Assembly (NCBI GenBank): GCA_964016885.1
Contig: OZ024740.1
Coordinates: 200,818,001 to 200,882,000, forward strand
Length of the DNA stretch: 64,000 nucleotides
Direction of reading: 5' to 3'
Source: Eledone cirrhosa
Lineage: Eukaryota
Below are positions 2,971-64,000 of the stretch, in pieces; the stretch's first letter is position 1, and every line of letters starts with the position of its first letter. The notes under the pieces were generated by a model. The model did not search any database. It was not told the DNA's origin and was given only the letters and a program-made list of their open reading frames with translations. The position numbers were made by a program, and so were the translations under genes.

Positions 2971-4462
2971 TTATTGTGGGTGATTTTGTGCTTTGTTGAT
3001 TTTTTTTTTTTTTTGTGTTTCCTTTTTGTATTTGGTGGATTTTGGTTTTCCCTCATCTTCACTACTGGTAGATGAGGCGTCTGTGTCTGTAAGTGTGTCT
3101 GTGTGTATGTTTATGGTTTTATTGGTGTGTGTATTTTGGGGGGGAGAGGAAATTTGACAGCTTTCCTCGTTTCCCCCTGGGTGGTCAATGTTGGTGGTGG
3201 TCTTTCTATTGGTGTTGTTGTTGGTGGTTTTGCCGGTGCTGGTGTTGGTTGTGGTCCTCGCCCCGGCGTCGGCAGCAGTGGAGCCTTTCGACCCCTTGCC
3301 TCTTTCAGCAGTTGAGGGCAGAAGGCTCGCAAATGGGTTTTTTCCCCACAAACAAAACAATGCGCCCTTTTGCCTTCGGTCATAATGTGAATGACCGTCC
3401 CATTCTGAGAGTGGATGTAGTCTGGGATTGTCTTCACATTCTCGGGCCTGATCTGGAGAAGGATCTCCAGGTCAAACTCGGTCCAGTCCTCTCTGGCCGT
3501 TCTAGTCACTTCTATAGGGACGGTATCCGTCCCCTCCACAATCACACATCCCAGAAGCCACCACGTGTCAAGTCCTGGTGGGATTCTAGGAATGAGGAGA
3601 CGTGCCGTTCTTTTTCCCATGTGGGAGGGGTACATTATGACCTTGCTGGTTTTTCAAGGAGTCATAGCGTGTTTCATAGCGAGGACTTCTAACTTGAACA
3701 ACACCAAAAAGGTGCCGTACAGTCTGCCCCTCTCTATGTATTCGGTATCTTCTCTGATGCACCTCAGCGCGACTTCGACATCTGCTTGTGGGATTAAAGC
3801 TGCCATTTTGGTTTGTGCTGAGATGCATCTATAATGCACCGTTCTGCGCTCCATTGCCTCAATAGCTTCTAGCGGGACAGTTAAGTTGGCCCAGGTTTGC
3901 TCTTGCTTGATGAGCTTCCATGCCTGGGCCAACTGTTCATCTTTGTTTGAGAGGTCCATGTTTAAGCATGGCTTCTTTTTTGCTGCTGCCGCAGCGAAAG
4001 TGTTCTTTTTGTATTCGTTGGGGCGTTGTTGTCGTTGTCGTTGTTGTTGTTATCACTGTCGCTGTTATCATTGTTGTCTTTGTTGCCACCGTTGTTCTCG
4101 GTGCAGTTGGTATTGTTGCTGTTCGTGTTGTCGCTATTTGTTTTCATGTTAGTGGTGTTGATATTATTGTTGCATTTGTCATTTTCTTTTTTGTTATCTG
4201 TATTTACGTTGTCGCTGCTACTGTCATTTTTTTCAAAATTAGAGTTCTCATTGGTATCATTGGTGTCTTTGTTTACATTGTTTGTGGTGGTGTTTGTGTT
4301 ATCAATTTGTGTTAATTTCGCTTTAGCGCTCCTCTCAACTTCTACGTCGTTGTCGCACGACAGCAGACATATCGCTGGGGGGCGTGGCTCAGCCATGTTT
4401 TTTTTCTCCGTAAACTTTTTAAAATGTAAAAAAAGTTCAAATATTTGGGCTAAAAGGCCCAA
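2971..4462 (-). pseudogene. LINE ORF1 (gag-like), fragmented, with Asn-rich N-terminus and Pro/Thr-rich C-terminus
   Basis: CFVCGEKTHLRAFC (CX2CX4HX4C) in ORF 3111..3635; adjacent ORF pieces 3654..3959 and 3962..4462 lie upstream of ORF2. Confidence 0.8.
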
Positions 4463-4953: not shown

Positions 4954-5847
4954 TATATATATATATAGTAATAATAATAAATTTGAAGACTTAAATCTAA
5001 GAAGGAATATGACGTCACTTTCAGCTTATATCTGGAGTCTAAAAGACAACCACACCCAATATAAGTTACACTGGGAGATCCTAGCTAGGGCTAGATCGTA
5101 TAACGGAAATAAAAGACAATGTGACCTCTGCGCCGCTGAGGCCCTGGAAATACTCTACGCCACAGACCACATCATAAACAAAAAATCTGAGGCAATTTCG
5201 GCTTCTAAACATAAATTGCACAAAACTTTCCTGTATTACAGCCCCACGCTATACCCTAACGGATAGTACGATTTATACGTGGATATTTTACGTCTTGATG
5301 TGGGAGCTAAGTATGTTTTGCTTATACCATTACTTATTTGCATAGGTAAGTATATTTTACCCGTATGTTTTGTGAAGGTACGTATACCTTCTCGTACATA
5401 TATTTGATTGTTTATGTTATGGCGTATAATTTTATATATTCTGGTACATATGGTTTGGCTATGTGTATACGGGAGTTTTGCGTCTGTGCGAGTATGCAGG
5501 TTCGTACGTATGTTGGGTGTGTGTATATGTGTACTTCATATTTTGGTTGACTTACGTCTCCGAACATTCGTGTATTTACATGTAGGTATGTGTGTGCGCT
5601 TGTTATACACGTAATTATTTATTTATATACGTTTATATAATTATTTATTTATTTGTATACACGCATACACACACATATTTATATGTGCGTGGTTTTGTAT
5701 ACCGATGGTAAGTGTTCTGCGTATGCTTGTGTATGTACGTATTTGTTTGCGTGTATGTATTTATTTATTTCTATTACTTCTGTATTGTATTTATTTACTT
5801 TGCTCTTAACTCTGTAGCGGAGATTCATTCGGTCTCCTAGTTAGAAT

Positions 5848-11013: not shown

Positions 11014-11570
11014 CCAAAAGTTAAACAAGGTTCCTTGATCAATGAATATAGTTTTACAATAGATTAGAAGCATTCAAAAGTTAGGTTTTCTGGAGTTTTT
11101 AATAATACTTCAAAATATTAATAAATATAGACATTCATGTGATCAAATATATTTTATTATATATATTTCAGAGGTACTGAGCTGTTTCATCAGTACGTCC
11201 TCATCAGATAAAATAAATTGATGTCTGACATACCTCAACTGTGCTGATGGTTCAATTCCAGTTTTGGCAGTCAAAACTGGAATTGAAATTAAAACGTGCG
11301 AAACTACAGCCGGTCTGAGAGTTGAAGTGGTTAAAAGATGTCAGATCTTAGTCTCGATCATTTTCTTCCTGTCCTACTTTCTCCTTATTACTTATGTGGG
11401 CCAACACACTTCTAGCCGCTGATTTCCGTCGTTCGAGGAAACTTTTACCGAATGCCGTGATTGACGGCATTTTCATCTTTTAACAGCTATTCTTGCGTTG
11501 AGATTTTCTCATTATTCTATAATTTCTAATACTCTCGCGCTCCAATTCTGTCTTCGAGAAAACTTTGTAT
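11012..11570 (-). mobile_element. Short non-coding hammerhead-bearing element (PLE pLTR or retrozyme-like) between (TA)n tracts
   Basis: Contains the hammerhead at 11150-11215 and a 16-bp-stem hairpin at 11251-11287; no ORF. Confidence 0.6.
11150..11215 (-). ncRNA. Type I hammerhead ribozyme
   Basis: Minus strand: tattttat-CTGATGA-ggacgtactga...tcagtacctc-t-GAAA-tatata-TA-ataaaata. Confidence 0.85.
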
Positions 11571-12721: not shown

Positions 12722-13057
12722 ATTGAAAAAAGTGGAAGGTTCTATATAAAACAGGTTATAGAAAAAAATGTAGGAATAGAAACAGTAGGGAAATATATCT
12801 AAAGTATTTGTTTCTCTTACTTTCTTCTTTCATCCGTCAAAGTGACATTGAAAAAATGAGAATAATTTTTTTTAATACAGGAGTTTTATAAAGTTTATAA
12901 GATATATAAAATATTACCGGCTTTAAATATCTTATATACTGCATAAAACTCGTTTTTTTTTTTAAATTGTTCTTCTCATTTTATCAATAATATCACTTTG
13001 ACGGATCAAAGGAGAAAAAAAGAAAAACAGATTCTTTAAATATATTCCCGTGCTGTT

Positions 13058-13327: not shown

Positions 13328-14085
13328 ATAACAAAGAAGGTGTGGAGAGCTACCAGGTAGACTATAACACACCAGAGTACTCGATACTTAGTGTAGTAGG
13401 GTGGGTAGTAGTGAAAAGAACCCTTACGGTTAGCTCCGACGATTCCACAGCTAGATCCGAACTAAGCCACCAGTGTTAGAATAGCAGGAATCTAGCTGAA
13501 CCAATCAAGGGGTGCAGTTCATATATGGGCATGCAGTCAAAACAAAAAAGCAGAAATATCAAAGCAAAAGATCCTAAAAGTTTGTTGTCACGGGGAGTGG
13601 TCAATGATCTGCAGTGTCATGTATATAGTTAAAATTCCTTCATAGATGCGGGGATGGGGATGAACAGGCCTGAAGAATAAGGGGAAGGAGTAAGAAGAGT
13701 AAGTCTGACCTGTGGCTGACAAATCAGTCAGGCATTAAGAGAGAAATCTATACAACTATCTTTCATTTATAGAATCGGTAAACTACAATTGAAAGAGGTA
13801 AGAATATAATTGTAAGAATCGAAGACGGTAGTTAGGGAGTTTAAGTTAAGTATGCCTCATTTAACACTGAGCTAAAGAGCAAAGCATTTAAATGTTATTA
13901 CTAATTCAAATTATTTGCTTTGATATTTCGGCTTTGTTTGTATTGACTACACGCCCCTTATATGGACTGTACCTCTACATAAGTTCAGTTAGATTCCCGC
14001 TCTTCTAATACTGCTGGCTTAGTTCGGATCTAGCTGTCGAAACGGCCGGAGCTCAGCCGTCGGGGTCCTGACTCTTTTCCCTATA
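13328..14085. mobile_element. Fold-back repeat family F, old copy with ~170-bp arms
   Basis: Shares the tail and arm sequence with 28618-28815; arms ~13405-13567 and ~13913-14085 are inverted. Confidence 0.75.
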
Positions 14086-14589: not shown

Positions 14590-15970
14590 GGCGAAAGAAT
14601 TACCAGAGCGGAAACACGTGGTGAAGTAAATAAAGGAGAACAAATCGTTAAAACATGTTTATTTAAAATAGCACATACGTACGTTTCGCCCGAATGGGCT
14701 TCTCAAGAGCATAAACAACTAAAAAGCGTTCCTTACATGACCCGGAATGGGGTTTTATAAATAAGTTCACGTCAGTGTTCATTCTTCGTAAAAAAACATG
14801 TATTGATTTTGCAGTAGGTCAAGGGAGATAACTCTAGCCGGTGTTAGAGCAGTATTTTCCGGACGACTTTTTTATCCGTTACTACTATGTGGTTACTACC
14901 CTACCATTTTCGATTCGCACAGGGTCAGGTATGCAATGTTAGTTTTGCGATGTTTGTTTGCTGCGCCTGCCCGCCTGGGTTGATTCATGCCGGATCCTGG
15001 ATGCATGGTTAGTTTCCGGATGTTTTTTGCAGCGCCTGCCCGCCGGGGTGTTAAACTTTGGTGCAGGGAGACCCGGTTTACGGTTTCCACTCCTCGTTCT
15101 TATTCCATCTGGAGTAGGATATTTTTAAGCGGTGTGTACAGCTTATCGTCGTTTCAGTTCTGTTGTTGATGAGCTCGTGGGGTGCCGTTATGATATGGTA
15201 GAGCTCCATGAGGCAAAGCTCGCACTTCTTCTTGAAGTTGTACGGTGCTGCTCTGCCGACAATTTCCCAGTGCGTGGAGAAGCTGATGTTTGAGTCTTTT
15301 AATGCTGTGATGTAATTCGCGAGCGAAGTGGGGTGTCTTAGTTTCTTGTTTGCGAAAGAGTGGAGATGTGTTTGAAATCTATTTTTGAACGGGCCAGAGG
15401 TAGCCCCTATTTAATGTTTAACGCTATTATGGCTAGTTACGGTGCACTTATATATAACCCTATCAGTCAGGCAGTTACCCCCAAGGGAGAAGCGTCCCCT
15501 GTCGCGGCAGTTGCAATTTCGGTCGCGGTCCCTTCTAGTTCCCACGGTAAGGCTATTATTATTGCTATCTACGTTGTTACCTACGCTCCTACACCTCTCA
15601 TTAGCACCATTATAACACACTGTGTGCGGGGTGGTACCATTATTATTCCGCACGCAGCAGTGTCTTCCGTTGCCGTCAGGTGACCCGCAGGGGTCACCTG
15701 CATATTCCCCAGTCATGTCGCGGTTATGTTGGTTGCGTCTGTAGGGGCTGTTCCCAGCACTATTGGATGCTGCTAGGGAGTCGTTAAGGCCGATATAGTT
15801 GTTGTCAGGTGTAGATGCATCGGTGCTAAGGTGCTGTGTCTTGGTGATCTTACTGTGATTAGTTGTTCCTATGATGTCTACTAGGTTAGGAGTAGTACAG
15901 AAGGATATTTTTATATTGTTCCTATTAAGGATGTTCCTATACTTATGGTTGGGTGGGAAGTTCTTCTCTA
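14590..15970 (-). mobile_element. 5'-truncated Naiad-like PLE (linker + GIY-YIG + 3' UTR)
   Basis: Minus-strand translation: IEKNFPPNHKYRNILNRNNIKISFCTTPNL...CNCR...GNCLTDRVIYKCTV...H*IGATSGPFKNRF..H..SF...SLANYI...HWEIV...CELCLMEL...INNRTE..SCTHR. Confidence 0.88.
14668..14712 (-). ncRNA. Hammerhead-like motif with variant core (CTTGAGAA)
   Basis: gct-CTTGAGAA-gccc-attc-gggc-GAAA-cgtacg-TA; stem I is weak; lies at the PLE 3' end. Confidence 0.5.
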
Positions 15971-16372: not shown

Positions 16373-16413
<41 letters not shown>

Positions 16414-16458
16414 CAATGATATTAAATAAATGGAAACTATATTTATAAAACCATATTT

Positions 16459-16519
16459 ATTCTATTATATATATTTCAAGGGTACCAAAAAACTTTGGTA
16501 CGCTTTCATCAGATAAAAT
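16459..16519 (-). ncRNA. Type I hammerhead ribozyme (left arm)
   Basis: Reverse complement of the motif at 16633-16692. Confidence 0.82.
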
Positions 16520-16632
16520 ACAAAGTGTGTATTATAAATTTTGACATAGCCAAGGAAAATACCTTATCAAGGAAAATTCAACTGATAAGGTATGTTCCTT
16601 GGCTCTGTCAAAATTTATAAAACACACTTTGT

Positions 16633-16692
16633 ATTTTATCTGATGAAAGCGTACCAAAGTGTTTGGTACCCTTGAAATATATATAATAGAAT
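16633..16692 (+). ncRNA. Type I hammerhead ribozyme (right arm)
   Basis: attttat-CTGATGA-aagcgtaccaaa-gtg-tttggtaccctt-GAAA-tatata-TA-atagaat. Confidence 0.85.
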
Positions 16693-16836
16693 AAATATGG
16701 TTTTATAAATATAGTTTCCATTTATTTAAGATCATTGAATATTTACTCCAGAAAACTGTCGAGTGCTCTGAATCAGTTATAAGCATTTATATTTGTTGAA
16801 TTTCCAACAAGTTAAATATCCCTTCTGCTTATATAT

Positions 16837-16992
<156 letters not shown>

Positions 16993-28617: not shown

Positions 28618-28815
28618 TATAACGAAGGAGGTGTGGTAAGGAACCAGATGGACCATAACGCACCAGAGTACTCAATACTTAGGGCAGTAGAGTGGGTAAT
28701 AGGAAAAAGTTTAACCCCGACGGCAGAGCTCAAGCCGTTTCGACGGCTATTTCTGGTCCAGAAATAGCCGTCGAAACGGCTTGAGCTCTGCCGTCGGGGT
28801 TAAAATGTGTTCCTA
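28618..28815. mobile_element. Fold-back family F, young copy: ~80-bp tail plus near-perfect hairpin centred at 28757
   Basis: ttaaccccgacggcagagctcaagccgtttcgacggctatttctgg-t-ccagaaatagccgtcgaaacggcttgagctctgccgtcggggttaa. Confidence 0.9.
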
Positions 28816-29123
28816 TATATATATATATAAATATATCTGCGTTTACATCAGCTATTAATATATGTCCCGCTTTTCGGCAGAACATAGATCGATAAAATAG
28901 GTACAACAGTAAATCTTTTCAACGCACTGTCCCAGCAATATGTCGCTTCAGATATTTTCAAAACGTTAGCAAAATTTAGTAAATGGATGAATGCATGGAT
29001 ACTTAACACCTGGCGGATTCATGAGGGCACTCTATTGATACTTAAAGGTGAGGCCAATCCCTCAAGGTCGGGAGACAGCTGAATTATTTCAGAGAAAGAG
29101 GGAGAAAGGGAGAGAGAGAGAGG

Positions 29124-41019: not shown

Positions 41020-42786
41020 TTGTCCATTATCCATATCACAATGGAAAAACAATACTTGGGAACTTCTTTAAAGAATATACCATTACCTTCTAAGGATGAT
41101 TTCTTACTTCTTATGATACAAAAAACCAACCAATTTATCAGAAGAGTCAGATGGAGGGCCTACCACTTCGATAAAAAATCAAAATGTACAGATAGGAAAT
41201 ATCTGTATGATTTCACGACATATAAAAATCCACCACACAACTCTTTACTTGAAAACTTTGAGAAAGACCTTTTTAATTTAATCAAACACCTCAAATTTAA
41301 GAGGTATAAATCTAACTTTCAAAAGGACCTTGATTCTACCCTATTGGACCTAAAAAAATCTAAAAAAATCCATGTCCACTCGGACAAAACTGGAAACCTA
41401 TATCACATGGATATTGAAAATTACAATGAGTTCATATATAAAGAACTCAGGAAAAATTATAGAAAAACAAACAATGCGTCACTTACCAATATCAACAACA
41501 AAACACACAGCATAGTGAATAGACTTAATATTGAAGATAGAACTGAACCTTTGGCATTGAAAAGACCACACTTCAACCTGAAAGATCATAAATCAAACTT
41601 TAACTCTAATCCTTCTATAAGACTTATATGCCCTTCCAAATCTGATATTGGAATAATTAGTAAAAAAAATTTAGATAGAGTCATCCCACAAATAAGAAAA
41701 CATGTTAATTTACCACTCTGGGAAAACACATCCCAGGTAATTAACTGGTTTAATAATATTAGATATAATTCCTCTGCTTCATTTCTACAATTTGATATAG
41801 ATAATTACTATTCATCTATATCACCTATACTCCTGAACAAAGCCTTGATATTTGCTAAAAATAGATCTAACTTAACTTTGGATGACATTAATATTATTAC
41901 ACATGCTAGACTAACACTACTGGAATTTCAGAATGAATAATGGACCAGAAACACATATAGTAATCTTTCTGATATTACTATGGGCTCAAGCGATTCTGCC
42001 CAAATTACTGATCTTGTGGGCCTCTTTCTTCTTTTTAACATAAATGCTTCCTTTCCCCACCTTAAAGGTGGTTTATATCGTGACGACTGTCTTCTTCTTT
42101 CCAATAACCTTAGCCTCTCAGAGATAGAAAAAAATAAAAAGCTTATTAGAACTTTCCTTAAAGACTATTATAGTCTAGATATTACATTTGAAAACACAAG
42201 TAAAGTAGTTAATTTCCTAGATATAACATTAGACTTATCTACGGGTATCTACCAACCTTACCATAAACCCAACCAAAATTTACACTACATACACTCACAA
42301 TCTAATCACCCTAAATCTATCCTTAAAAACCTTGCATATAATATATCACTTAGAATTTCTAACCTTTCGTCTAACCAAGATGTATTTGATAAAAATGCGA
42401 CCTTTTATAACGAAGTTCTAGCTAGAAGTGGCCACAAAAATAGATTAGTATATATACCTTCTACCAATAACACTACAAACATACAACCTAATATTACCAA
42501 CAAACACCAAATGAAACGTACACACCTAAATGCCACTCACACTATACCCCAAAATACCAACATAAAACCAAATTTCTCTAACTCTTCTAATATACAGTAT
42601 AGTAACTCTCAAAAAACTACTCATCCTACAACTCTAATAAATGTTAATAATAAAACTCCTAATAAACAAGCTAAAACACCTAAATCAATAAATCTAACTA
42701 AAAATGTGTGCGGAGAGGTCATTAACAATAATTCTCCTAGTAAACATCAGGATGCATCCTATAAAAACAATAACATTCTATCATGA
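41020..42786 (+). pseudogene. Naiad-like PLE reverse transcriptase with one in-frame TAA at 41938-41940; its own GIY-YIG is not seen
   Basis: SLKNIPLP, FIRRVRWRA, DKTGNLY, LKDHKSNF...RLICPSKSDIG, FLQFDIDNYYSSIS, MGSSDSAQITDLVG, GLYRDD, NFLDITLDL, YIHSQSNHP. Confidence 0.9.
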
Positions 42787-46366: not shown

Positions 46367-46667
46367 GTATATGTATCTATGTATATGTATATATTATCAG
46401 TAGCACGAACACAGCTCGATTGAGATTAGAGGCATATATGGAAGCTTATCCAATATGTTCATGTACAGTCAACAGTGGCGTATTTGCTAGGTCGCTAGCC
46501 TGCTTGATGGCAACTGCACCACTCGATGGCCCACGTTAGTACTTTAGGGGCAATGCAAAAACATTGCTTGCAAAGATAATATCATAAGTCCTAGAGGTAG
46601 AATAAAAAATAACAATAAGCATATAAAACAATTAAGCATAATAGGGTCGTCTTGCACATGAAATGGA

Positions 46668-46712
<45 letters not shown>

Positions 46713-46740
46713 ATCAAAAGATGGTTAAATGAGTTCCATG

Positions 46741-46811
46741 TATTTTATTATGCGCATTTCAAAAACAAATATCATCATGCAACAACATTTGTGTTTTCAT
46801 CAGATAAAATA
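46741..46811 (-). ncRNA. Type I hammerhead ribozyme (left arm)
   Basis: Reverse complement of the motif at 48860-48930. Confidence 0.85.
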
Positions 46812-48859
46812 GGAGGACATGAAATGAAGGTTAAAAAACACTTGTAGATAGTGCAGTTTTAAATCAACATATGAAAAGTAGTTTTAGATTGATGTGTGAT
46901 ATTGGGTAAAAATAAATTTTGAGGGGGGGGGGGGATGAAAAAGAGGAGGAGATGAGAGTAAAAAGTGGAGGGGGAGGAGTATAGTGAGGAAGGATGAGAT
47001 AGGAGGAGAGATGGGTGATAGAGAGAGAGAGATAACTTTTATAACTGAGAAAAATATATTGTTTTACATAGAGAGGTTGTAAAAACCGTTGGAAGATAAT
47101 GTATAAATTAAAAGAATTTAAAAATTAACGAAGAGAAAAATAATGGAAAGTTAAGGTTTCTATATTGAAGGGTTTAATAATATGTGCGATGAAAAGAAAT
47201 TGTTAATATGTATTAAGAATAATATTTAAGGGTTTAATAATATGTGCGATGGAAAGAAAATGTTGATATGTATTATTAAAAAAAACAGAAGTAATGTAAG
47301 TAAGGATATATTGTGAGATGAGCATGAATAAGTTTGATGAAAGGGAGAAAAAAATAATGAATAGAGGATGAATAATCTAACGTCAAAAAATGTTTATGTT
47401 TACGAAGGATTTTTTCAAGGTCATATGAAGTAAGAATATGGTGTATTGTGTAATAATTGTTTCTATGTTAGGCACAGTGAAAAAAGGTACAGATTAGGGG
47501 TTAGAAATTAGGAGTGATGTAGAATATAATAAATATAATAAATAACTTTGAAATAAGGTAGAAAGATGGGTATATTTTTAGAGAAGTATATATATATATA
47601 TATATGTGCCTTTGAGAAAAGGATTCTGAATTGATAAAGTTTATCATATTAGCTGTATACTTTATGGAAAGTTCTGTGGAATTTATGCAAGCAGATAGAA
47701 AACAAGTCAGTGCGTCTATTTATTATAGAATCTAAATTAGAAATAATGGTAAATTTTTCATTTAGACAGAGATTGCAAGTCTTGGATAGAGAACTGTTCC
47801 TCTGCTTCTTCATACTTGAACAGTTCTCTATCTAAGACTTGCAATCTCTGTCTAAATGAAAAATTTACCATTATTTCTAATTTAGATTCTATAATAAATA
47901 GACGCACTGACTTGTTTTCTATCTGCTTGCATAAATTCCACAGAACTTTCCATAAAGTATACAGCTAATATGATAAACTTTATCAATTCAGAATCCTTTT
48001 CTCAAAGGCACATATATATATATATATACTTCTCTAAAAATATACCCATCTTTCTACCTTATTTCAAAGTTATTTATTATATTTATTATATTCTACATCA
48101 CTCCTAATTTCTAACCCCTAATCTGTACCTTTTCTCACTGTGCCTAACATTGAAACAATACACCATATTCCTACTACATATCACCTTGAAAAAATCCTTC
48201 GTAAACATAAACATTTTTTGACGTTAGATTATTCATCCTCTATTCATTATTTTTTCTCCCTTTCATCTAACTTATTCATGCTCATCTCACAATATATCCT
48301 TACTTACATTACTTCTGTTTTTTTAATAATACATATCAACATTTTCTTTCCATCGCACATATTATTAAACCCTTAAATATTATTCTTAATACATATTAAC
48401 ATTTTCTTTCCATCGCACATATTATTAAACCCTTAAATATTATTCTTAATACATATTAACAATTTCTTTTCATCGCACATATTATTAAACCCTTCAATAT
48501 ACAAACCTTAACTTTACATTATTTTTCTCTTCGTTAATTTTCAAATTCTTTTAATTTATACATTATCTTCCAACGGTTTTTTCAACCTCTCTATGTAAAA
48601 CAATATATTTTTCTCAGTTATAAAAGCTATCTCTCTCTCTCTATCACCCATCTCTCCTCATATCTCGTCCTTCCTCACTATACTCCTCCCCCTCCACTTT
48701 TTACTCTCATCTCCTCCTCTTTTTCATCCTTTCCAACTTCCCCACCCCCCTCCAAAATTTTTTTTGCCCAATATCACACATCAATCTAAAACTACTTTTC
48801 ATATGTTGATTTAAAACTGTACTATCCACAAGTGTTTTTTTAACCTTCATATCATGTCC

Positions 48860-48930
48860 TATTTTATCTGATGAAAACCCAAATGTTATTGCATGATGAT
48901 ATTTGTTTTTGAAATGCGCATAATAAAATA
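48860..48930 (+). ncRNA. Type I hammerhead ribozyme (right arm)
   Basis: tattttat-CTGATGA-aaacccaaatgttatt-gcatg-atgatatttgttttt-GAAA-tgcgca-TA-ataaaata. Confidence 0.87.
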
Positions 48931-49054
48931 CATGGAACTCATTTAACCATCTTTTGATCTTATATATTATGTATACTCCAGTCCTACAAACTGTAGAGTG
49001 CTTCTTATCCGATATCTGCATTGCTTTATTGTACTACAATAAAACTCACCTCCT

Positions 49055-49116
<62 letters not shown>

Positions 49117-49364
49117 TCCATCTCATGTACAAGACGAGGTTAACTTTGCCTTTCATCCTTACGGGGTCGATAAAATAAAGTACCAGTAATGCACTGGAAT
49201 AATTGCTGGCCTTGTGCCAAAAGTAGAAACAATTATTATTTTTTATTCTACCTCTAGGACTTATGATATTATCTTTGCATATATATATAAACAATGCATG
49301 AAACCGAATTTTCAGCTCTTGAGGCGCCGAGAATATATGTAATTATATAAGTATAATGTGCTTA

Positions 49365-54094: not shown

Positions 54095-54325
54095 ATAACG
54101 AAGGAAGTTTGGTAATGAACCAGATGTACCATAACGCACCAGAGTACGCAATACTAAGGGTAATAGAATGGGTAATAGGAAAAAGTTTAACCCCGGCGGC
54201 AGAGCTCAAGCCGTTTCGACGACTATTTCAGGACTAAATTAGAACCTTTAGCTAAAAATTCTAATTTAGTCCCGAAATGTCGTAGAAACGGCTTGAGCTC
54301 TGCCGTCGGGGTAAACTTTTTCCTA
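54095..54325. mobile_element. Fold-back family F copy, arms ~75 bp
   Basis: Same tail and arm as 28618-28815, but the turnaround lies further in (tttagctaaa, ~54253). Confidence 0.88.
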
Positions 54326-54339
54326 TATATATATATATT

Positions 54340-57045: not shown

Positions 57046-58224
57046 ATATATATATATGTGGGGGGGGGGGGGGGGGTATAAAATAATTCCGTCGGAAAAG
57101 TCCAGGAAAAGAGGAAAAAAGAGTGCTCTATGTAGGTAACAGAGCTTAATACTTATGTAATAAACAACATAAGGCAATTATTCCATTTACCAATGGTTTC
57201 TTAAAAGCAAAAAATGTTGCTTTCAATCGTCAGAATGAAAAATTCCTGGTGTATTTATTGATATTGGATTCTAAAAACAAAAATGCAATCTATATGAAAG
57301 TGAGGCTGGAGAAGGAAGAAGGAAAGGAAAAATAAAATAAAAACACACATACAAACACACACACGCACACACACACACATCATTATATACATACACACAT
57401 ATATATATATATATATACACACATACATACATACACACATATACACATATATATATGTATATATATATACATACACATACATATACACATACATACACAC
57501 ATAAATATCAACATATCAATACATACACATACATATATACAACCACACACATATATATACATATATATATATATAGAAATAGAAATATATATATATATAT
57601 GCATACAGATATACATACATAGCCATACACACATACAAATACATAGATACATACATACACACAATCGTACGTATATACACACACATACATACATAGCCAT
57701 ACAATTATACACATACAAATACGTACATATCACAAACACGGACAACCAAATACAAACACACACATATATATATATGTGTGTATAAAACTCATTCTTAGAT
57801 AATTCATATGAACCTTATTTAACTCTAAAATATACATATATATATATATATATATATACACATACACATACATACACATACATACATACTAACATACACA
57901 TATATACCTACACACACATATATACATACACATACATATTTATACGTACACACACACACACACATATACATATATAACTCAATATATATATATATATATA
58001 TATATAAGAAAGAACATAAATATTATAAAATAAATATTGTATATATAAAAAAAATTTTGGGAATACGACAAATAATAAGTAAAAAAATATATATTTAGAA
58101 AAGGGTATAAATGCCCATAGCAGACCTAGAGCACTCAACAAGTTCCTGGAGCAAAAGATCAATGAAAATAATCATCAAATCACTATATGTAATGATGCAC
58201 ATACATACACCCTTATACATATAT

Positions 58225-58293
<69 letters not shown>

Positions 58294-58562
58294 AATATAT
58301 ATATACAAACACACACACACAAAAATGTGTGTGTGTCTGTGTATGTATATATGTATACGGGTGTATGTATGTGCATCAATACATATAGTGATTTGATGAT
58401 TATTTTCATTGATCTTTTGCTCGAGGAACTTGTTGAGTGCTCTAGGTCTGCTATGGACATTTATACCCTTTTCTAAATATATTTTTTTTTATTTATTATT
58501 TGTCGTATTCCCAAAAATTTTTTTAGATATACAATATTTATTTTATAATATTTATGTTCTTT

Positions 58563-58570
<8 letters not shown>
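55830..58570 (+). repeat. ~2.75-kb segment duplicated directly at ~61200-63960
   Basis: Near-identical sequence; the spurious ORFs 55981..56205 and 61351..61575 have identical translations. Confidence 0.95.
57181..57240 (-). ncRNA. Type I hammerhead ribozyme
   Basis: tttcatt-CTGACGA-ttgaaagcaa...ttgcttttaa-GAAA-ccattgg-TA-aatggaa. Confidence 0.85.
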
Positions 58571-58597
<27 letters not shown>

Positions 58598-58725
58598 AGT
58601 TATATATGTATATGTGTGTGTGTGTGTGTACGTATGAATATGTATGTGTATGTATATATGTGTGTAGATATATATGTGTACGTTAGTATGTATGTATGTG
58701 TATGTATGTGTATGCGTATATATAT
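57850..58725. repeat. ~870-bp palindrome centred near 58320; second copy at ~63245-64000
   Basis: Mirror-image ORFs 58095..58460(-) and 58111..58476(+) have near-identical translations. Confidence 0.92.
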
Positions 58726-58734
58726 ATATATATA

Positions 58735-59304
58735 TAAGTTGAAAAAAATGAAAACGAAATTTCATTTCTCACTCTTAGTATGGCACTTACTTAAATGTAA
58801 GTATGTATGTATACGTACATACATATATGTATACAGACGTACAGTAGCATGCATATATACATATATATTTATATATATATATATATATACACACATATGC
58901 ATACAGGTACACATACATATATGCACGCATCAGTTTAGTCGACGTTTATTATAACGCCGGCCGCTTTGTTCGTTTGTTTGTCAACAAAGCGAACAGCCTG
59001 AATTTATGCCATACGGTGTTAAGGCAACCACGTCACCTTTTTGTTCAACACTGACACAGGAACGATGGACTAGTTTCAAGCTTGTTAGCTATCATCAGCA
59101 CCGTTTACCCATCTGCCAGATAGTTGAACGTTCGAAAGTATATACTTTCCTTATGAAAATTAACGGCTGAGCAGCCTAATTTGCATATTGAGTGAGTTAA
59201 ATCGGTTAATTCGCTTTGTTGACAAACAAACGAACAAAGCGGCCGGCGTTATAATAAACGTCGACTAAACTGATGCGTGCATATATATATGTGTACCTGT
59301 ATGC

Positions 59305-59351
<47 letters not shown>

Positions 59352-59420
59352 TATATGTATATATGCATGCTACTGTACGTCTGTATACATATATGTATAT
59401 ACGTATACATACATACTTAC

Positions 59421-59425
<5 letters not shown>
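58735..59425. mobile_element. Family C hammerhead element with fold-back arms (~58792-58993 and ~59210-59425)
   Basis: gcatcagtttagtcgacgtttattataacgccggccgctttgttcgtttgtttgtcaacaaagcgaa and its reverse complement. Confidence 0.88.
59062..59104 (-). ncRNA. Minimal type I hammerhead ribozyme
   Basis: acggtg-CTGATGA-t-agct-aaca-agct-t-GAAA-ctag-TC-catcgt. Confidence 0.88.
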
Positions 59426-59470
<45 letters not shown>

Positions 59471-59618
59471 TTTAGAGGTAAATAAGGTTCATATGAATTT
59501 ATCTAAGAATGAGTTTTACATACATATATATATATATATATATGTGTGTGTTTGTATTTGGTTGTGCATGTTTGTGATATGTACGTATTTGTATGTGTAT
59601 AATGGTATTGCTATGTAT

Positions 59619-59666
<48 letters not shown>

Positions 59667-59689
59667 GTATGTATATGTGTGTGTATATA

Positions 59690-59720
<31 letters not shown>

Positions 59721-60465
59721 ATTTGTGTATGCGTATGTATGTGTTTATGTATTTGTATATGTATATTTATGTGTGAGAGTGTGTGTATGTATTTATTTTT
59801 ACGTACGTATGTGTACGTGCATTTGTGTGTATTGCTTACCACGCGTGTTTGTTCATTTATTTGTTGCCTGTATCGCTGTCAACTTTATAATAGTCTTTAT
59901 TTTCTTTTTTATGTCTTTTATTATTATATATATATTTTGTTATATTTATTTGCGTGTGTGAATATGTAGAGGTGTGTGTATATATTTTTCTATTTTTGTG
60001 CATGTATATGTATGCATGTATATATGTGTGTATGTATGTGTATGTATGTACGTGTGTATATACGTACGATTGTGTGTATGTATGTATATGTATGTGTGTA
60101 TGGCTATGTATGTGTATGTGTATGCATATATATATATATTTATATTTCTATATATATATGTATATATATGTGTGTGGTTGTATATATGTATGTGTATGTA
60201 TAGATATGTTAATATTTATGTGTGTATGTATGTATGTGTATATGTATGTGTATGTATATATATACACATATATATATGTGTATATGTGTGTGTGTATGTA
60301 TGTGTGTATGTATATATATATGTGTGTGTATGTATATAATTGCGAGTGTGTTTGCATGTGTGTTTTTATTTTATTTTTCCTTTCCTTCTTCCTTCTCCAG
60401 CCTCACTTTCATATAGATTGCATTTTTGTTTTTAGAATCCAATATCAATAAATACACCAGGATTT

Positions 60466-60526
60466 TTTCATTCTGATGATTGAAAGTGAACATTTTTTGC
60501 TTTTAAGAAACCACTGGTAAATGGAA
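60466..60526 (+). ncRNA. Type I hammerhead ribozyme
   Basis: tttcatt-CTGATGA-ttgaaagt...gcttttaa-GAAA-ccactgg-TA-aatggaa. Confidence 0.85.
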
Positions 60527-60918
60527 TAATTGTCTTATGTTGTTTATTGCATAACTATATATATATATATATATTAATATGTATTGTTTTATGTGAAACC
60601 TTTGCCATACTGTAATATATATGCCTAGTACCATTGCTTGTTTTTTGCCTGGTTATTCTGTATATGCATAATTCCTCTGCACTCTTTCTATACGTTTGCC
60701 TATGTACTGCTAATGTCCTCATTTTATGAGTACCTTTCTTCTTTAATTCCTCTATAATTGTTGTATTATTCTTTTATAATCTTTGTCGCATCCACTGATA
60801 CTGACTACATCATCTTCACTCTTTAAATATTACACTGTTAATAACAACAGTAATATCTACGATTCTTTACAATCATTCTGTGGAATAGGAGGTTAATTAT
60901 ATGTCTAAACTTTGCCAG

Positions 60919-60965
60919 TGCTCCGATGAAACCAAACGAAAGTTTGGAAGAAACGATTGTCAGCA
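60919..60965 (+). ncRNA. Hammerhead-like motif with variant core (CCGATGA)
   Basis: tgct-CCGATGA-aa-ccaaac-gaaa-gtttgg-aa-GAAA-cgattg-TC-agca, followed by AATAAA. Confidence 0.65.
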
Positions 60966-61184
60966 ATAAAATGTTTTGAACATAGTTTTGATTATTCTGT
61001 TATTTATATTCCGGCTCTGTAAAACATCTGATGTGTTTACATTGAGCTATTTTTGTTACTGGTAATAAAGTGATGATGAATTACTGACCTTTCCTATTTA
61101 TAATTATATATAATGTATATATAAGTATAAATAATATTATTATTATTATATGAATATGTATGTATACCTTCACAACAGACACCT

Positions 61185-61223
<39 letters not shown>

Positions 61224-61707
61224 CTCTATTTTCATTTATATATATATATATATATATGCTAACGGTATATGAATTTAAGAATGCTCAGCCACTTACACAA
61301 AATTGATTCCATGATCAAGCTGTTCCGTTGATTGAACAATCAAGTTATTAATGATTGTAACCTATGGAGGTATATTCCATACCCTAATTACTCTCATCTG
61401 TATACATCATACTCTATCTTCATTCTCATTCCTTCTTATATATCCTCTATTTTTTCTAATCCTATTCGTTTCTTTCTATTGGGTGGGAGCAGGCTTCATT
61501 TTTCCTTTTAATTTCTTTCATATTTTCAATTTTTTATACTTTTTTTTACATATTGTTTTCTTTACATCTATATGAAATATGTCGGTATTATGTGTTATGT
61601 TTTATTATTTCTATTTTCTTTATTATTATGCAGGTGGCAATTCCTTATAGATGTCACATAAGTTAAATGGCTTTTTGTTACCGTATTACACACACACACA
61701 CACACAC

Positions 61708-61809
<102 letters not shown>

Positions 61810-62385
61810 TCTATTCTATTGACTGCCGAATAGCTTTGTTATATTTAACCACTCTGTCGAGAGCTTCATTCGATTTGTGATATTTTGCATTTTCGCAATA
61901 TTATACACAGATGAATTCATTCGCCTAATTTAGGTGTTGCCTCCCTTGCTGAACCCCACGTGGGGTCAGTTACAGACACATCTATGTGGTCTTTCGAACT
62001 GAATCCCGTTGACAACGCGTACTCCTAGTTCAGTCAGGATACAAGAAACTTAACATCCTTTATGTAAGTGGACAGTAAATGACTTATGGAGCCGCAGAAA
62101 CCCCAACACTGGACTTCACCATCATCCCAGGGGTCCGGGTGAGTATAAAACATTTATGCTTTCATATATTTTTATATCTGTATATCTGTTTGACCCGAAA
62201 TAGGAGATCGAATCTTCGCTATGTGGATGATTAGTTTAACCACCATCTCATTGTGTTTGGCCTTTAACGTAAGTTGTAAGCTCTAATTCATTTGAATTAT
62301 CTAGCGCTTGCCTCACAACTCGAAAGTGTTTTTTTCGTTATTTCATGGGCTGAAATTCGATTCTCGTTAATTTTTGCTTATATAT

Positions 62386-62442
<57 letters not shown>

Positions 62443-62557
62443 GGGGGGGGGTGTATAAAGTAATTCCGTCGGAAAAGTCCAGGAAAAAAGGAAAAAAGAG
62501 TGCTCTATGTAGGTAACAGAGCTTAATACTTATGTAATAAACAACATAAGGCAATTA

Positions 62558-62617
62558 TTCCATTTACCAGTGGTTTCTTAAAAGCAAAAAATGTTGCTTT
62601 CAATCGTCAGAATGAAA
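62558..62617 (-). ncRNA. Type I hammerhead ribozyme (duplicated copy)
   Basis: Copy of 57181-57240. Confidence 0.85.
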
Positions 62618-62728
62618 AATTCCTAGTGTATTTATTGATATTGGATTCTAAAAACAAAAATGCAATCTATATGAAAGTGAGGCTGGAGAAGGAAGAATGA
62701 AAGGAAAAATAAAATAAAAACACACATA

Positions 62729-62768
<40 letters not shown>

Positions 62769-63607
62769 ATTATATACATACACACATATATATATATATA
62801 TACACACATACATACACACACACATATACACATATATATATGTATATATATATACATACACATACATATACACATACATACATACACACATAAATATCAA
62901 CATATCAATACATACACATACATATATACAACCACACACATATATATACATATATATATATATAGAAATATAAATATATATATATATATATGCATACAGA
63001 TATACATACATAGCCATACACACATACAAATACATAGATACATACATACACACAATCGTACGTATATACACACACATACATAGCCATACAATTATACACA
63101 TACAAATACGTACATATCACAAACACGCACAACCAAATACAAACACACACATATATATATATGTGTGTATAAAACTCATTCTTAGATAATTCATATGAAC
63201 CTTATTTAACTCTAAAATATACATATATATATATATATATATATACACATACACATACATACACATACATACATACTAACATACACATATATACCTACAC
63301 ACACATATATACATACACATACATATTCATACGTACGCACACACACACACATATACATATATAACTCAATATATATATATATATATAAGAAAGAACATAA
63401 ATATTATAAAATAAATATTGTATATATAAAAAAAAATTTGGGAATACGTCAAATAATAAATAAAAAAATATATATTTAGAAAAGGGTATAAATGCCCATA
63501 GCAGACCTAGAGCACTCAACAAGTTCCTGGAGCAAAAGATCAATGAAAATAATCATCAAATCACTATATGTAATGATGCACATACATACACCCTTATACA
63601 TATACAC

Positions 63608-63680
<73 letters not shown>

Positions 63681-63714
63681 AATATATATATACATACACA
63701 CACACACACAAAAA

Positions 63715-63748
<34 letters not shown>

Positions 63749-63955
63749 TAAGGGTGTATGTATGTGCATCAATACATATAGTGATTTGATGATTATTTTC
63801 ATTGATCTTTTGCTCGAGGAACTTGTTGAGTGCTCTAGGTCTGCTATGGGCATTTATACCCTTTTCTAAATATATTTTTTTTTATTTATTATATGTCGTA
63901 TTACGAAAAATTTTTTTAGATATACAATATTTATTTTATAATATTTATGTTCTTT

Positions 63956-64000
<45 letters not shown>

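Follow-up and report, generated by a model that had tools for sequence, protein, structure and literature searches.

How does a single insertion come to consist of two mirrored, 5'-truncated copies of the same retroelement, only one of which carries a tail? This question is raised by a locus in a 64,000-nt stretch of Eledone cirrhosa DNA (hereafter the window, whose own positions are used throughout). Self-alignment of the window brings out a left arm of 1089 nt (46711-47799) and a right arm of 1145 nt (47818-48962), inverted and 98% alike (1049 matches, 21 mismatches and 94 gap columns), on either side of an 18-nt loop (47800-47817). This is the layout of the original prediction, which had described two ~1.1-kb inverted arms with an 18-nt loop, an extra tail on one side, (TA)n on both flanks, and two versus three copies of a 60-bp unit in the arms. 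The tail (48960-49062) is present on the right side alone, the flanks are (TA)21 on the left and (AT)26 on the right, tracts inside which a target-site duplication is not readable, and the 60-bp unit was measured at 1.9 copies in the left arm vs 2.9 in the right. The locus consists of two 5'-truncated, inactive copies of a Hydra-clade Penelope-like element (PLE) placed head-to-head, with the following features.

46669-46710, unstranded: (TA)n target, left flank; tract seen in the sequence
46711-47799, minus: left arm, tail-less 5'-truncated Hydra-PLE copy ending at site A; from alignment
46741-46811, minus: predicted type I hammerhead motif of the left arm, core start 46803; descriptor match
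47162-47275, minus: 60-bp 3'-UTR unit, 2 copies; repeat count
47649-47799, minus: C-terminal GIY-YIG remnant (CxxC..E..N..CxH) of the left arm; from sequence
47797-47799, unstranded: TTC microhomology, 3 nt, at the head-to-head junction; junction listing
47800-47817, plus: 18-nt loop, extra 5' element sequence of the right arm; alignment and locus L033
47801-47968, plus: C-terminal GIY-YIG remnant and stop codon of the right arm; from sequence
47818-48959, plus: right arm, tail-bearing 5'-truncated copy; from alignment
48327-48500, plus: 60-bp 3'-UTR unit, 3 copies; repeat count
48801-48808, plus: d161, start of many short family copies, often after a non-templated G; putative capped RNA 5' end
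48860-48930, plus: predicted right-arm type I hammerhead motif, which would cleave after 48922; descriptor match
48960-48970, plus: TA-like site A, joint of tail-less arms with the (TA)n target; family comparison
48971-49062, plus: tail up to site B, followed without a break in L112 by the next unit (5' UTR, then ATG); family comparison
49063-49115, unstranded: (AT)n target, right flank; tract seen in the sequence

As for the center of the pair, the loop is no spacer: it is the element sequence that naturally precedes the right arm, as L033 shows (WKKVSSASSYLNSS). The tail-bearing arm is 21 nt longer than the tail-less one, and the two overlap by 3 nt (TTC) at the junction. The turnaround was placed within ...SSLSKTCNLCLNEK...INRRTDLFSICLHKF, which is a C-terminal GIY-YIG remnant as had been claimed, although of Hydra type and not of the Naiad type claimed with it. 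Further out, the flanks (46569-46668 and 49116-49279) hold older inverted repeats, 48 nt at 98% and 22 nt at 91%, so that an older inverted structure surrounds the insertion, which occupies its central TA tract. On the right (49116-49279), the flank resembles what we take to be a SINE-like repeat of cephalopod genomes.

The element is best read at better-preserved loci. In L023, a 634-aa frame contains YRDD and LIY..YFG, the reverse transcriptase (RT) being followed by the linker CNCPDKNKC and, at the C-terminus, by a GIY-YIG-like core with one Cys and then CNLC..E..N..CLH. At one locus (L044/L112), a pLTR, the tail, a 5' UTR and an ATG (at 3370) follow one another in tandem, the tail being the start of the next unit. 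With RT and GIY-YIG endonuclease in one ORF, a pLTR tandem and a pLTR hammerhead motif detected by our descriptor, the element is an EN+ PLE, in agreement with the original prediction. A Pfam search of the ORF returned no relevant family, and atlas look-alikes at 0.95-0.96 have RVT_1 and GIY-YIG on fewer than half of their members.

The clade was assigned from motifs, published papers being cited here and below for the passages covered. The L112 ORF contains HSDKTNNLY, with an exact DKT motif, and RRLKWIAYF, a variant of RRMRWKAFF. A CxCX5C linker is present together with a C-terminal endonuclease in the focal family and in a second family (CNCRDRSKC), while CCHH is absent, CxxC and CxH flanking E and N in the focal endonuclease. 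Since the linker, DKT, RWK-like and CxxC/CxH motifs match the definition of the Hydra clade (PMC8557442, section 11), the element is assigned, on its sequence motifs, to this clade of PLEs with a C-terminal endonuclease, as a distinct family. The N-terminus of the family also aligns by eye with Hydra-1_Obim (proteins from the PMC8557442 supplement). The Naiad label was rejected, because in Naiads the endonuclease is N-terminal, a CxC linker connects it to an RT at the C-terminus, and canonical hammerheads are absent (PMC8557442), whereas the endonuclease here is C-terminal and Hydra-type. Elsewhere in the window, decayed Hydra-like ORF pieces at 41533-42468, 15126-15524 and 4997-5230 are 35-49% identical to the family protein.

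The arrangement of the focal copy is common in its family. The genome contains 1,527 exact matches to a 26-nt end motif and none to a control motif. Two samples were compared with TA masked: 35 loci picked by similarity, and, in order of position, the 75 loci with the first 100 motif matches on contig C1 (66 additional and 9 examined before). A head-to-head pair is present at 52/75 position-ordered loci. The outer ends are fixed at two places past the hammerhead, TA-like site A and, ~100 nt further, site B, while the inner ends vary from tail-only up to 2655 nt; fixed outer ends that are both element 3' ends, with a turnaround varying per copy, are what had been predicted. Exactly one tail is found in 70/71 pairs, L058 having two. 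Among the 52 position-ordered pairs, the arm that bears the tail is the shorter of the two in 34 and the longer in 7, while in the other 11 the lengths agree to within 5 nt (p=2.5e-5); L044 is counted among the 34, yet its tail reads on into the ORF, and without it the split is 33 vs 7. Eleven arms are tail-only by BLAST, which the junction listing divides into 7 pure tails with no sequence in common with the partner arm (L025, L083, L092, L096, L097, L100 and L101), 3 arms that stop ~10 nt or less past site A (L086, L089 and L110) and 1 that stops ~30 nt past it. Near-symmetric long pairs are found in 5/25 cases vs 0.6 expected, a figure inflated by the mis-measured L015 and the pre-selected focal copy, leaving 1 other in the position-ordered sample. 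Unrelated inverted repeats are also frequent near the copies examined (L131-L172; L031:2623-6236), and L031 holds a 100%-identical 1.3-kb inverted pair around a different PLE-like ORF.

The two arms of a pair go back to a single template, and to the same stretch of it. Of 168 calls made at 17 common polymorphic sites, 164 agree between arms, where 67 disagreements would be expected. In 59 pairs, 400 columns differ between arms (597 expected) and 105 non-majority bases are common to both (21 expected), a count to which gene conversion between arms could add. Moreover, arms starting at d157-166 are paired with an arm of >200 nt in 0/35 cases vs 14.4 expected. It is because of this agreement in polymorphisms, the common non-majority bases and the absence of long partners for d161 arms that we conclude in favor of one template, which upholds the earlier claim of a common origin.

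Position d161 (48801 in the window) is a frequent start of short arms. The natural upstream base there is C in 75/76 cases, and G precedes in 11/45 other contexts (5/45 being natural-context variants). A cap leaves an extra-G signature on reverse transcripts, and d161 may be a capped transcription start inside the pLTR. Arm starts at d161 sometimes come with a short duplication.

Head-to-head junctions could be measured in 62/65 cases. The arms overlap by 2-7 nt in 27, by 0-1 nt in 9, and are joined by filler or mutated sequence in 26, some of which may be mutated element sequence rather than filler. At the filler-free junctions, the overlap is at least 2 nt in 27/36, for a null chance of 0.18 and with the proviso that CATATG joins are not independent of one another.

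Both focal arms match a type I hammerhead descriptor of our own (46803 on the minus strand and 48868 on the plus strand), which finds 8 matches in the window vs 0-1 in each of 20 shuffles. The prediction of a hammerhead at each arm is upheld to this extent, but not the qualification of canonical: helix III has 2 bp with a palindromic loop, and the pair at 10.1/11.1 is A-U, not the usual G-C. Short helices III with palindromic loops are of the kind said to require a dimer (PMC4209133), and the minimum free energy fold of the monomer does not form helix III. Rfam scans returned no hammerhead family, only microsatellite-driven miRNA noise. All 12 core nucleotides are intact in 144/151 family arms; variation is lower in the core than outside it (7/1902 vs 279/22638), which we do not take as evidence. 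As the two focal hammerheads sit on opposite strands, a read-through RNA would hold one of them, paired to its own antisense copy. Hammerhead-core-like motifs are also seen at 11207(-), 37629(+), 40440(-), 44946(+), 50838(-) and 59098(-), of which 11207 alone passes the full descriptor.

The same layout had been predicted at seven other sites in the window, and it is found in full at two, 16414 and 57080. Inverted arms and a one-sided extra, with no descriptor match and a 3' hammerhead half visible by eye, are present at 28618, 54095 and 13328. The two remaining sites depart from the prediction, the descriptor finding no hammerhead at 12722, and 58735 having a single hammerhead-like core in the spacer and not at the ends. 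Two further families account for part of these sites. The second (16406-16837) is Hydra-type, with an ORF C-terminus 50% identical to that of the focal family. Its end motif is matched 44,753 times, both of its arms have a hammerhead, and the tail is found on one side. It repeats the pattern of the focal family: in its first 60 loci, tallied by eye with arms re-measured by self-alignment and with L132, L135 and L136 left aside, the arm with the tail is the shorter one in 9, the longer one in 6, about equal to its partner in 4, and tail-only or nearly so in 13, while none of the resolved pairs has two tails or no tail. The third (13328-14069, 28618-28816 and 54095-54326), with 15,117 matches, has very short arms and a one-sided extra of ~80 nt. 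Nested inverted repeats occupy 57057-63143, where hammerhead-ended arms at 57233/60473/62610 enclose the pairs 57839-58736 and 58792-59425; part of this block recurs near 62500-64000.

How, then, would such a pair be made? We propose, with a probability of about 0.6, twin-primed double reverse transcription of one RNA. First, the GIY-YIG endonuclease of the element would cut both strands in a (TA)n tract. One 3' end would then prime cDNA synthesis at TA-like site A, just past the hammerhead, and the other would prime on the same RNA at site B, ~100 nt downstream at the end of the tail. The B-primed polymerase would usually stop sooner, at times at or before site A, and could run over the same stretch. 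The two cDNA 3' ends would be joined via 2-7 nt of inverted microhomology or filler, each joined cDNA finally templating the second strand of the other. Twin priming would explain why a pair has one tail and why the arm bearing it is usually the shorter, as well as the stops at site A, the common variants and the joins of complete ends; arms that are tail-only or stop near site A look as though synthesis had run into the first primer. For one RNA to be copied twice, the PLE RT would have to be without RNase H. The layout, the clade motifs, the single tail, the common template and the junction microhomology are observed, whereas the order of events, and two polymerase events rather than one hairpin making the arms, are what we infer. 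The two tails of L058, the apparent excess of near-symmetric long pairs and the focal copy itself count against the model. The final DNA is alike for a join of A- and B-primed cDNAs, for the fold-back of one cDNA followed by capture, and for a free hairpin trimmed on one strand.

The fold-back version, in which one cDNA folds on a short internal homology and copies itself, and the endonuclease trims the hairpin at site A on one strand before target joining leaves a single tail, is in our judgment rather unlikely, even though it is the strongest competitor. Self-priming has an antecedent in PMC3846280, and in PMC8557442 the tail was suggested to be resolved by the endonuclease; fold-back accounts for the common template, for d161 arms being paired only with short arms and for junction microhomology. 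The focal copy taken alone, with its tail arm 21 nt longer, its near-symmetric 18-nt loop, its TTC overlap and one private variant common to both arms, fits fold-back. However, a cDNA that is target-primed and folds must be the longer arm and contain all of its copy, so that this form predicts the tail on the longer arm, as seen in only 7/41 asymmetric pairs, and fails for most pairs. The free-hairpin form requires a strand joining not demonstrated for GIY-YIG. Moreover, in 9 pairs both arms reach d161, which leaves no templated loop: five are zero-loop joins (L049, L071, L095, L104 and L060) and four have filler (L054, L056, L074 and L108). In L036, L111 and L029 the overlap at the join is 0-1 nt, and in two of the three the join spans a loop of 0.7-1.2 kb. 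The tail made in vitro is determined by where the RT starts (PMC11167929). The mirroring of a whole truncated cDNA, which had been put forward as the general mechanism, is consequently not borne out, given the strong asymmetry of most sister pairs, the tail on the shorter arm in 34 vs 7 pairs and the 7 tail-only arms.

Less probable again is a combination, in which both target ends prime, one cDNA folds back, and the new plus strand anneals to the other cDNA, making the center a true mirror and the outer part a second cDNA. It fits one tail per pair on either arm, and the focal center is indeed the best-matched part, its inner ~315 nt having 1 mismatch and the remainder of the arms 20. Against this, the single inner mismatch is a family polymorphism at which the focal arms disagree, and the combination is superfluous for tail-only or zero-loop pairs.

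We rejected, as very improbable, an origin from separate insertions, or from different RNAs, that came together head-to-head and that gene conversion subsequently homogenized. The endonuclease may cut its own pLTR (PMC11167929), and the 60-bp unit count differs between arms in 6/11 pairs although SNPs agree (L016, L030, L032, L040, L066 and the focal copy), a discordance that independent RT slippage and later loss would produce alike. Such events are nonetheless at odds with the one-tail rule, with the concordant polymorphisms and with d161 arms never being paired with a long arm. An ordinary fixed-center MITE or an assembly artefact is hardly credible and was rejected in line with the original prediction, because turnarounds range from tail-only to 2.6 kb, the family encodes RT and endonuclease, and each focal arm has 13-14 non-majority bases, mostly private to that arm, which fits ageing after insertion rather than artefact; a search for the 86-nt junction in 4 runs gave no junction-spanning Logan contig among the matches listed and is uninformative.

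The element and its layout are ordinary for PLEs. An inverted 5'-truncated copy with a one-sided tail is depicted in Fig. 2 of PMC8557442 (Craig et al. 2021), in which the formation of inverted structures is named as open; self-priming was put forward in PMC3846280 (Arkhipova 2013); inverted Penelope copies match siRNA sources in flies (PMC3681739), and Penelope is heavily edited in a lizard (PMC5625713). Neither the layout nor the ideas of self-priming and of siRNA production are new to the literature. The pair counts obtained here lead to a specific twin-priming model for the mechanism named as open in PMC8557442, a model that is testable in an existing in vitro system. In the literature covered, mostly papers outside subscription and excluding the 2005-2006 PLE reviews, no paper applies twin priming to Penelope, and the passages covered of a 2026 retrozyme preprint do not address inverted insertions. 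Whether twin priming is the default mode of PLE insertion, a dimer copying the same RNA twice from two fixed starts and the cDNAs priming each other's second strand, we regard as an even bet. If it is, a single mechanism would account for second-strand synthesis as well as for the inverted pLTR and the tail on one side, and would seed the genome with tens of thousands of ready-made hairpins. With 1,527, 44,753 and 15,117 matches for the three families, these insertions, if transcribed, could supply near-perfect hairpins on a large scale; a sequencing-run search had no RNA run among the matches listed, which is evidence neither way.

Comparison with known systems places the element close to the Hydra clade, including Hydra-1_Obim and Hydra-1_Ajap (PMC8557442), with which it has in common DKT, an RWK-like motif, CxCX5C, CxxC/CxH around E/N, no CCHH, a hammerhead and (TA)n. 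It differs in its ~1.0-kb 3' UTR with 60-bp units, in its tail of ~100 nt vs 30-40 bp in PMC8557442, in RLKW replacing RWK, and in the A-U at 10.1/11.1 of the hammerhead. The pairs resemble the inverted truncated PLE copies of PMC8557442 (Fig. 2) and PMC3846280, which are head-to-head, meet at a palindromic junction and may have a tail at one of their ends, but these were tentatively attributed to self-priming or endonuclease resolution, whereas our counts favor two primed cDNAs from one RNA. The Poseidon element of Anolis (PAc), a predicted dimer, cuts and extends both target strands in vitro, its RT starting at two sites that delimit the tail (PMC11167929, Frangieh 2024), and there too the tail is the start of the next unit. 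PAc starts without homology, however, while site A here has an 8-11 nt TA-like match to the target, and the passages covered of PMC11167929 do not tie the reaction to head-to-head insertions. Naiads have the (TA)n preference and the inverted or tandem layout in common with the focal element, which differs from them in endonuclease position and in having a hammerhead motif. In L1, twin priming is a minority outcome, and its two pieces barely overlap. The second target end there primes internally on the same RNA and the inversion is joined by microhomology (10.1101/2024.12.14.628481; see also PMC2837659), both of which are reminiscent of the present model. By contrast, the primers here would both have a fixed location close to the 3' end, the overlap between arms extends to kilobases, and the head-to-head pair is the majority outcome.
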